Shown here piece by piece: positions 30,901-33,900 of a DNA stretch of 64,000 bases. The stretch is from Escherichia coli. GTDB taxonomy: Bacteria > Pseudomonadota > Gammaproteobacteria > Enterobacterales > Enterobacteriaceae. The position numbers were made by a program. Where the stretch lies: assembly GCF_965641715.1 (NCBI RefSeq), contig NZ_OZ282453.1, one strand, 5' to 3'. Position 1 is the stretch's first letter; each line of letters starts with the position of its first letter.

Positions 30901-33900
30901 CTTCGGTACGGTAAAAAGCGAGTGAATACGGGCGGCAAACGCGGCTTCGTTTTCTCCTTTCGCCCGTGCTTCCTGCGGGGTAATACCGGTAATTAATACT
31001 GCTCCTGGCTGGGGTAAATAGTCATCAGCGGGCTTGCAGTAAAAGACTTCGGGTTCGCCGATGACATTGAATTCGCTATCGGTGCGAATGGCTGCGAACT
31101 GTGCAGGGCGATCTAACGCGGGGTGCGTGCCAAAGGTTTCGTAATCGTGAAACAAAAAGGTAGATTGTTGCTTACCGTCATTCATCATTAGGTTAAATCC
31201 GTTATTTCTGCTGTCTGCCAGAGTATCAAATATCACCGTGCTAATCAGCTTTAGCGCGATAATTTGACAGCGAGTGGCAACAGATCATGTCAGATAAAAA
31301 TGAGAGGGTAGTCACATTTTCTTGCACTTTATTCCAGCCAGTTCATAAGTATTTCCGTAAAAAGAACAGCTATTTGAAACTCCTGAGGGTTTGCTGTTGA
31401 AACGCCGTCTTATTATTGCTGCTTCTTTGTTCGTTTTTAACTTATCGTCTGGTTTTGCGGCGGAAAACATTCCTTTTTCACCTCAGCCTCCAGAGATTCA
31501 TGCCGGGTCCTGGGTACTGATGGATTACACCACCGGACAGATCCTCACCGCGGGTAATGAGCATCAACAGCGCAATCCCGCCAGCCTGACAAAGCTGATG
31601 ACGGGTTATGTCGTGGATCGCGCTATCGATAGTCATCGCATTACGCCAGACGATATTGTCACCGTGGGGCGCGATGCGTGGGCGAAAGATAATCCGGTGT
31701 TTGTCGGTTCTTCACTGATGTTTTTGAAAGAGGGCGATCGCGTATCGGTACGTGATTTAAGCCGTGGTTTAATTGTTGATTCCGGAAATGACGCTTGTGT
31801 TGCTCTGGCTGACTATATTGCCGGTGGGCAACGGCAGTTTGTTGAAATGATGAACAACTATGCCGAGAAGCTGCATCTCAAGGATACGCATTTTGAAACA
31901 GTGCATGGCCTGGATGCGCCAGGTCAGCATAGCTCGGCTTATGATTTAGCTGTGCTTTCTCGTGCTATCATCCACGGCGAGCCCGAGTTTTATCATATGT
32001 ACAGTGAGAAAAGCCTCACCTGGAACGGTATCACCCAGCAAAACCGTAACGGGTTATTGTGGGATAAAACCATGAATGTTGACGGCCTGAAAACGGGTCA
32101 TACTTCTGGTGCCGGGTTTAATCTCATTGCTTCGGCTGTAGATGGGCAGCGTCGTCTCATTGCAGTGGTAATGGGGGCTGACAGTGCAAAAGGTCGTGAG
32201 GAAGAGGCAAGAAAATTACTGCGTTGGGGGCAACAAAACTTTACTACGGTGCAAATTTTGCACCGTGGGAAAAAGGTCGGTACGGAACGCATCTGGTATG
32301 GCGATAAAGAAAATATCGCCCTGGGAACAGAACAAGAGTTCTGGATGGTACTACCGAAAGCCGAAATTCCACATATCAAAGCCAAATATACCCTTGATGG
32401 TAAAGAACTCACCGCGCCAATTAGCGCCCATCAGCGGGTAGGGGAAATTGAACTTTACGACCGTGATAAACAGGTGGCGCACTGGCCGCTGGTTACCCTG
32501 GAATCTGTCGGGGAAGGCGGCATGTTTTCCCGCCTGAGTGATTATTTCCACCATAAGGCCTGACCTTTCTTTTGCAGCAGACTGGCAGGAGTGCGAGTCT
32601 GCTCGCATAATCAACACTCATTCCTTGTGGTTTTAATATTGCAACTATACTGTATATAAAAACAGTATTAATGGAGGCGTCATGAACTACGAGATTAAGC
32701 AGGAAGATAAACGTACCGTTGCAGGTTTCCATCTCGTTGGCCCGTGGGAACAGACGGTAAAGAAAGGCTTTGAGCAGTTGATGATGTGGGTAGATAGCAA
32801 AAATATTGTGCCGAAGGAGTGGGTTGCTGTCTATTACGACAATCCAGATGAAACACCCGCCGAAAAATTACGCTGCGACACCGTCGTGACGGTGCCGGGT
32901 TACTTTACGCTTCCCGAAAACAGTGAGGGCGTCATTTTGACAGAAATTTCAGGTGGTCAGTATGCGGTGGCGGTAGCTCGTGTAGTCGGTGATGATTTTG
33001 CTAAACCCTGGTATCAGTTCTTTAATAGCCTCTTGCAGGACAGTGCTTATGAAATGTTACCAAAGCCCTGCTTCGAGGTTTATTTGAACAATGGCGCGGA
33101 AGATGGGTACTGGGATATCGAAATGTATGTTGCTGTGCAGCCAAAACATCACTAATTCATCTCAGGGCGGTGTGTTAACGCGATGACCACTCTTTTTTTT
33201 GAAAGCGAAAAGAGTAAGATGCGCCTTTCAATTTTTTCGCTCCTGCCGGGAAATTACACTGTTCCCGGTTTGTCCGTCGGATAATTCAGAGGCGCGCCTT
33301 CTGGCCGACAGATGAGTTATGAGCGCTTTTAATCTTCATTACGGAGTTTCTGCGTGCGTGCCGATAAGTCATTAAGCCCGTTTGAAATCCGGGTATACCG
33401 CCATTACCGCATTGTGCATGGTACTCGGGTCGCGCTGGCATTCCTGCTCACTTTTCTCATTATCCGCCTGTTTACTATCCCGGAAAGCACCTGGCCGCTG
33501 GTCACCATGGTGGTGATTATGGGGCCAATCTCGTTCTGGGGTAACGTTGTTCCTCGCGCCTTCGAACGTATTGGCGGTACGGTGTTGGGTTCGATTTTAG
33601 GTCTTATCGCTCTGCAACTGGAGTTAATCTCGTTACCGCTGATGTTAGTATGGTGCGCGGCGGCTATGTTTCTTTGCGGTTGGCTGGCGCTGGGCAAGAA
33701 ACCGTATCAAGGTTTATTGATTGGGGTGACGCTGGCAATTGTTGTGGGTTCCCCTACAGGTGAAATTGATACGGCGTTATGGCGAAGCGGCGATGTGATC
33801 CTCGGCTCTTTACTGGCAATGTTGTTTACCGGTATCTGGCCACAACGGGCGTTCATCCACTGGCGTATTCAACTGGCGAAAAGTCTGACCGAGTATAATC

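Follow-up and report, generated by a model that had tools for sequence, protein, structure and literature searches.

The 20-mer TACTGTATATAAAAACAGTA at positions 32648-32667 (plus strand) of the window, the whole 64,000-nucleotide stretch of the Escherichia coli chromosome analyzed here, is with very high probability the LexA operator of the sbmC (gyrI) promoter, a reading that combines the sequence with the K-12 literature on an identical box and comes with a proposed occlusion mechanism. The sequence of the box, its score, its uniqueness, the identity of the gene behind it and the conservation of both the box and its position were observed directly. The features of the locus are the following:

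32592-32607, plus strand: predicted CRP-S-type site (Sxy/TfoX-dependent CRP) TGCGA-GTCTGC-TCGCA, TGCGAGTCTGCTCGCA, centered at 32599.5, recognized by its dyad and conservation
32625-32630, plus strand: candidate -35 element TTGTGG, suggested by a TTG that stays conserved when 77 upstream sequences of sbmC are aligned
32645-32651, plus strand: putative -10 element, C + TATACT (CTATACT), read from the sequence and overlapping the first 4 nt of the LexA box
32648-32667, plus strand: LexA operator (SOS box) TACTGTATATAAAAACAGTA, recognized by sequence, weight matrix, identity with K-12 and conserved position
32673-32677, plus strand: Shine-Dalgarno sequence GGAGG, 4 nt before the ATG, with a top-base frequency of 0.96 across species
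32682-33155, plus strand: sbmC (gyrI), encoding a DNA gyrase inhibitor of 157 aa, defined by its ORF and NCBIfam NF007451

The LexA box and the gene behind it

The 16-mer core CTGTATATAAAAACAG occurs once in the window, at 32650-32665 on the plus strand, exactly where the sequence-only reading had placed a LexA motif, and the 20-mer ends 14 nt before the ATG of sbmC. Scoring was done with a log-odds matrix built from 17 published E. coli boxes (PMC3009722 Table 4), from which sbmC was omitted. The 20-mer obtained 27.0 bits, the top of the window on both strands and equal to the best training site (training range 15.4–27.0), and it still reached 26.0 bits once the identical umuD site was also dropped from the matrix. 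When the window was shuffled 300 times with its dinucleotides preserved, the top score came to 13.5 on average and 20.7 at maximum; the weight-matrix scoring that had been suggested as a check was thereby carried out, and the site came through it above every shuffle.

By chance the CTGT-N8-ACAG core alone should turn up 0.74 times per window, and 52 of 100 shuffles had it at least once, so that an exact core match is insufficient as an argument on its own; the signal over chance resides in the TA-rich spacer and the TA flanks. Compared to the ideal palindrome TACTG(TA)5CAGTA, the LexA consensus as quoted in PMC6590174, the box agrees at 18 of 20 positions with both half-sites intact, the mismatches at box positions 12 and 14 being A for T; the spacer itself is non-palindromic. 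The site had been described as perfect and as an exact consensus match: the strength holds, the perfection does not, and the box is best called very strong. A heterology index of 0.58 calculated from the 17-site matrix is not comparable with the published value of 2.8 and was not used.

The next matrix match in the window after the sbmC box scored 18.2 bits: TCTTGTATATCCAACCAGTT at 58407-58426 (plus strand), located within the coding region of mtfA (ORF 58016-58852, minus strand). Its left half-site has TTG in place of CTG, as in the dinG box. Any match of at least 18 bits appeared in 6 of the 300 shuffles, which makes this one mildly unexpected; its location inside a gene and its non-canonical half-site point to chance or to weak binding.

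The gene was correctly named from the sequence alone. The NCBIfam equivalog NF007451 matched the ORF with 299.6 bits (cut-off 179) over residues 1-157 of 157, the product is identical to K-12 SbmC (b2009) at 155 of 157 positions (99%), with two amino-acid differences, and matching E. coli genomes annotate the ORF 32682-33155 as sbmC. The locus belongs to the E. coli chromosome and has the order sbcB-dacD-sbmC-yeeA, with sbcB on the minus strand, and dacD (ending at 32563) and yeeA on the plus strand, an arrangement as in E. coli genomes. A 901-bp region around it was found in 5419 of 5426 complete E. coli genomes, and the 118-bp intergenic region upstream of sbmC has 95–100% identity in nearly all complete E. 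coli genomes.

The K-12 sbmC gene (gyrI, b2009) shares with the window the 20-mer, its distance to the ATG, the dacD and yeeA flanks and the CRP-S dyad, and the K-12 box as printed in PMC3009722 Table 4, TATACTGTATATAAAAACAGTATCA, includes the 20-mer. Within the 135-nt promoter region, strain MG1655 differs from the window by two single bases outside the box and the CRP-S site, namely A/T between the -35 and -10 elements and T/C at 2 nt past the box; like the differences in SbmC, they have no obvious functional meaning. Judging from this identity, what the window holds is the sbmC SOS box of K-12 in a different E. coli strain; it is already known, in agreement with the sequence-only reading, which had presented it as known biology. 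To our knowledge, no listing of the LexA regulon of E. coli omits the box, and sbmC has been a recognized SOS gene since 1995.

The SOS control proposed for the gene is supported by the identical K-12 box together with published lexA-dependent induction. According to the K-12 literature, from which both the lexA dependence and the CRP/Sxy dependence discussed below are taken, sbmC, with a heterology index of 2.8, is induced 5.7-fold by AZT and depends 9.5-fold on the cleavage of LexA (PMC11228462), is UV-induced (PMC3009722) and is counted among the SOS genes with a confirmed box (PMC6590174). Its response is biphasic, and an alternative sigma factor has been suspected (PMC5999292); RpoS and H-NS are named as further sbmC regulators in titles within reference lists.

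The plus strand of the sbmC-yeeA spacer (33156-33353) showed no site resembling an intrinsic terminator and nothing more than a weak hairpin, CCGGGAA...TTCCCGG, with TTTGT behind it; folding of the spacer in search of a terminator was unremarkable (z = -1.6), and there is no LexA box before yeeA. Since yeeA is among the UV-induced K-12 genes (PMC3009722 Table 5) and has neither its own LexA box nor a terminator in the spacer, read-through from the sbmC promoter into yeeA is plausible. At approximately 34900-36000, by homology with positions 7715-8349 of locus L083, a truncated remnant of an EutP/PduV microcompartment gene lies between tmaR and cobU in the closest genomes; E24377A has an intact EutP/PduV gene and pduU at the tmaR-cobU position. 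The CP4-44 prophage, which presumably lies beside yeeX in K-12, is absent from the closest genome.

Promoter anatomy and the CRP-S site

The putative -10 element CTATACT, with C at -13 followed by TATACT, has the form preferred by sigma-S. Between it and the candidate -35 element TTGTGG lie 15 nt in E. coli, as against 17 nt in Salmonella and Citrobacter, and the consensus promoter scanner remained silent on the TATACT promoter because of this 15-nt spacing. Conservation of the hexamer already fails inside the genus Escherichia, where E. albertii reads TTATGC instead. The transcription start would be located at approximately 32656-32661, inside the LexA box and about 21–26 nt upstream of the ATG. 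The first of these positions comes from a K-12 tiling array, in which the 100-mer that lies upstream of the UV-induced sbmC transcript starts with AGGCCTGACC (PMC3009722 Table 8); this corresponds to window position 32556 and puts the 5' end of the transcript at approximately 32656, with an array resolution of 7 nt in intergenic regions. The second comes from the class I CRP distance of -61.5, which, counted from the CRP-S center at 32599.5, places +1 at approximately 32661, also within the box.

A box lying over -10 and +1 should let LexA keep RNA polymerase out, and this is most likely how it acts, although we infer the exact -10 element and the start site, and hence the occlusion geometry. 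The overlap between the box and the promoter, as claimed by the sequence-only reading, is accordingly a deduction that the putative -10 element, the CRP-S class I spacing and the tiling-array 5' end all support.

The TGCGA-N6-TCGCA dyad is unique in the window, with 0.07 expected by chance, and the form TGYGA-N6-KCRCA is present in 75 of 82 sbmC upstream regions. The mean top-base frequency of the dyad is 0.87 vs 0.45–0.54 in its flanks. In the features typical of CRP-S sites, TGCGAGTCTGCTCGCA has the core TGCGA-N6-TCGCA with C6 and G17 (the type being a 22-bp dyad) and lies upstream at a class I distance, its center being 56.5–61.5 nt upstream of the proposed sbmC start. Together with CTGGC (32582-32586) and TAAT (32608-32611), the dyad makes up the most conserved intergenic block before sbmC in about 15 genera. 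Cameron and Redfield (PMC1635313) reported for sbmC a CRP-S-like site, a 6-fold induction by Sxy, a requirement for CRP and cAMP and a class I mechanism. The dyad at 32592-32607 is probably the site they reported; a search of the literature for the CRP-S site sequence of sbmC as text gave no match, the published sequence being present as a figure only. LexA is not the sole input, the predicted CRP-S site also belonging to the sbmC promoter: the sequence-only reading was right about LexA and overlooked CRP-S/Sxy as a further input.

The Klebsiella/Raoultella group has the dyad in its canonical form, TGTGA-N6-GCACA, and at a distance from the LexA box that is about 15 nt shorter. The CRP-S promoters of ppdD and yrfD share with sbmC the TGCGA core half-site, the C at position 6 and the G at position 17. 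However, sbmC does not belong to the DNA-uptake genes, and among the three CRP-S genes tested in PMC1635313 no other has a strong LexA box.

The consensus promoter scan chose an upstream candidate, CTGGCA-18-CATAAT at 32582-32611, with a 9/12 match. If this were the promoter, LexA would still bind, transcription would start at approximately 32618, and the box, at about +30 to +49, would work as a roadblock. The scan match speaks for such an arrangement, as does the conservation of CATAAT/CATACT and CTGGC, which rank with the best-kept intergenic columns across genera, but the conserved block coincides with the TGCGA-N6-TCGCA dyad, which fits the CRP-S site described for sbmC in PMC1635313, one that works by a class I mechanism from upstream of the promoter, and the K-12 UV transcript starts at approximately 32656, about 38 nt downstream of the start predicted from the scan, at a resolution of 7 nt. 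Because of this coincidence, and because the class I spacing puts +1 in the box, the block 32582-32611 is read as an activator site and not as a promoter; CTGGCA-18-CATAAT was downgraded as the main promoter, and a roadblock mechanism is considered very improbable.

Two other candidates in the same region were rejected. A sigma-54 promoter for the conserved CTGGCA...TGC was dropped, the GG-to-GC spacing being 7 nt and not 10. A hairpin GCAGACT...AGTCTGC (32577-32602) was evaluated as a dacD terminator or RNA element: its stem is lost in the Citrobacter freundii group, where the sequence block is kept, it is not followed by a T-run and it has no Rfam match, an Rfam search of 32300-33500 having found nothing.

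Under the preferred occlusion mechanism, a LexA dimer would occupy the CTGT and ACAG half-sites in an undamaged cell, and, with the box lying over the last four bases of (C)TATACT and the start, the bound LexA would prevent formation of the open complex by RNA polymerase. Upon DNA damage, RecA filaments on single-stranded DNA would induce self-cleavage of LexA, the operator would be freed and sbmC would be transcribed; the SbmC protein would then bind gyrase and limit gyrase-mediated DNA breakage. The promoter would be intrinsically weak and would also require the class I CRP-S site (with Sxy), plus RpoS and H-NS according to the titles cited in the literature, making the release of LexA necessary for full sbmC expression and not its sole condition.

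Conservation and natural disruptions of the operator

One genome per species was scanned for SbmC relatives, resulting in 80 loci from genera including Escherichia, Citrobacter, Salmonella, Enterobacter, Lelliottia, Kluyvera, Klebsiella, Raoultella and Atlantibacter. In 73 of the 80 species, covering at least 13 named genera, a LexA box scoring 15.4 bits or more was present no farther than 60 nt from the sbmC ATG, and the gap separating the two was always 14–24 nt in these 73. In the 77 distinct upstream regions, the top-base frequency in the half-site columns was 0.90 for CTGTAT and 0.98 for ACAG, vs approximately 0.54 in the neighboring intergenic sequence. The combination CTGT..ACAG is kept in 38 species, GTGT..ACAG is found in 22 (mostly Enterobacter, Lelliottia, Leclercia and Silvania) and ATGT..ACAG in six species of the Klebsiella/Raoultella group. 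Refutation of the site had previously been declared not applicable, which is wrong, since a missing conservation or a wrong position would count against its function.

That the palindrome might be a chance AT-rich sequence, an H-NS or IHF site or a minus-strand promoter, and no functional LexA site at all, could draw on the frequency of the short core expected by chance, on a minus-strand match in the promoter scan (TTAATA-16-TATAGT, 32671 to 32644) that overlaps the box, and on the naming of H-NS and RpoS in the reference-list titles, but it is effectively refuted already and has next to no probability given the 27 bits of the full 20-mer vs the shuffle maximum of 20.7, the half-sites and position kept in 73 of 80 species with diverging flanks, the lexA-dependent expression of K-12 sbmC (PMC11228462) and the absence of a minus-strand gene upstream, dacD being co-directional and ending at 32563.

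In Intestinirhabdus alba (locus L075, upstream of position 1201) the sbmC orthologue lacks both the CRP-S dyad and a proximal LexA box; the DNA preceding the gene is GC-rich and unrelated, and the best box, of 16.6 bits, lies 166 nt upstream.

Three natural disruptions of the sbmC operator were encountered (loci L084, L078 and L081). In E. coli MSB1_9I (L084, NZ_LR890508.1, locus 2598-4486) an ISL3-like element, ISEc53, is inserted in the center of the sbmC LexA box. The insertion point corresponds to window positions 32654-32661, with an 8-bp target duplication ATATAAAA; the half-sites are split apart and the native promoter is separated from sbmC. This ISEc53 carries a gene of the ClbS/DfsB family. 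In Klebsiella michiganensis DSM 25444 (L078, locus 145-1190) an ORF with the reverse-transcriptase motif YADD is located directly before sbmC on the same strand, which on our reading of the motif may be a group II intron reverse transcriptase/maturase. The end of the foreign DNA coincides exactly with the place of the right end of the LexA box in related Klebsiella (junction ...ACAGT / ATTTTATCAAC); the right side of the insertion lies within the fetched flank and the left side beyond it. In Escherichia sp. MOD1-EC7003 (L081, locus approximately 1165-1200) a short deletion removed nearly all of the LexA box (junction CATACTG / ATTGGAGG). The sbmC match at this locus is limited to residues 1-82, which suggests a decaying gene with a lost operator.

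Comparison with umuDC and Salmonella, and the meaning of the operator

In Salmonella enterica, sbmC has a single box just before the start codon, in alignment with that of E. coli, and nalidixic acid induces the gene; for S. Typhimurium one box and a 3.55-fold induction have been published (PMC8072944). The Salmonella box sequence in subsp. diarizonae is CACTGTATATAAATACAGTG, the heterology index published for S. Typhimurium is the higher one (6.32), and the box-to-ATG gap in Salmonella is 16 nt vs 14 nt in the E. coli window.

The umuDC operator of E. coli has the same 20-bp LexA box as sbmC (PMC3009722 Table 4), and both are among the best scores of the regulon. Despite this identity, the AZT induction was 56-fold for umuD and 5.7-fold for sbmC (PMC11228462). 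With the same operator and an approximately ten-fold smaller induction of sbmC, the strength of the operator alone does not set the response. In contrast to umuDC, the sbmC promoter also needs CRP-S/Sxy, and the smaller induction fits a weak promoter depending on CRP-S/Sxy and possibly on RpoS. The heterology indices given in PMC11228462 are 2.1 for umuD and 2.8 for sbmC, yet the 20-mers are identical in PMC3009722; this discrepancy probably comes from different matrices or site definitions.

The sbmC box matters little beyond its correct annotation. It is useful as a positive control, as a true operator was found at exact coordinates from the sequence alone, and the table of 80 boxes across species could be used for modelling the evolution of LexA operator affinity. 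The SOS and Sxy/CRP signals converge on sbmC in the same promoter, which has the conserved CRP-S site.

A wider comparative reading, offered tentatively and with the odds somewhat against it, would make the control region of sbmC a fixed three-input module, in which a LexA operator of top affinity lies on the start of a weak class I CRP-S/Sxy promoter with a sigma-S-type -10 element, and in which the operator has been retuned clade by clade through decay of a half-site. Release of LexA alone would then give modest expression, which would explain the approximately ten-fold weaker induction compared to umuDC with its identical operator. Each component of this module has already been published; the comparative tuning pattern alone may be undescribed. 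If the reading is true, Enterobacter, Lelliottia, Leclercia and Silvania would have retuned the CTGT half-site to GTGT and the Klebsiella/Raoultella group to ATGT, and the E. coli box would represent the high-affinity extreme of an evolvable setting.
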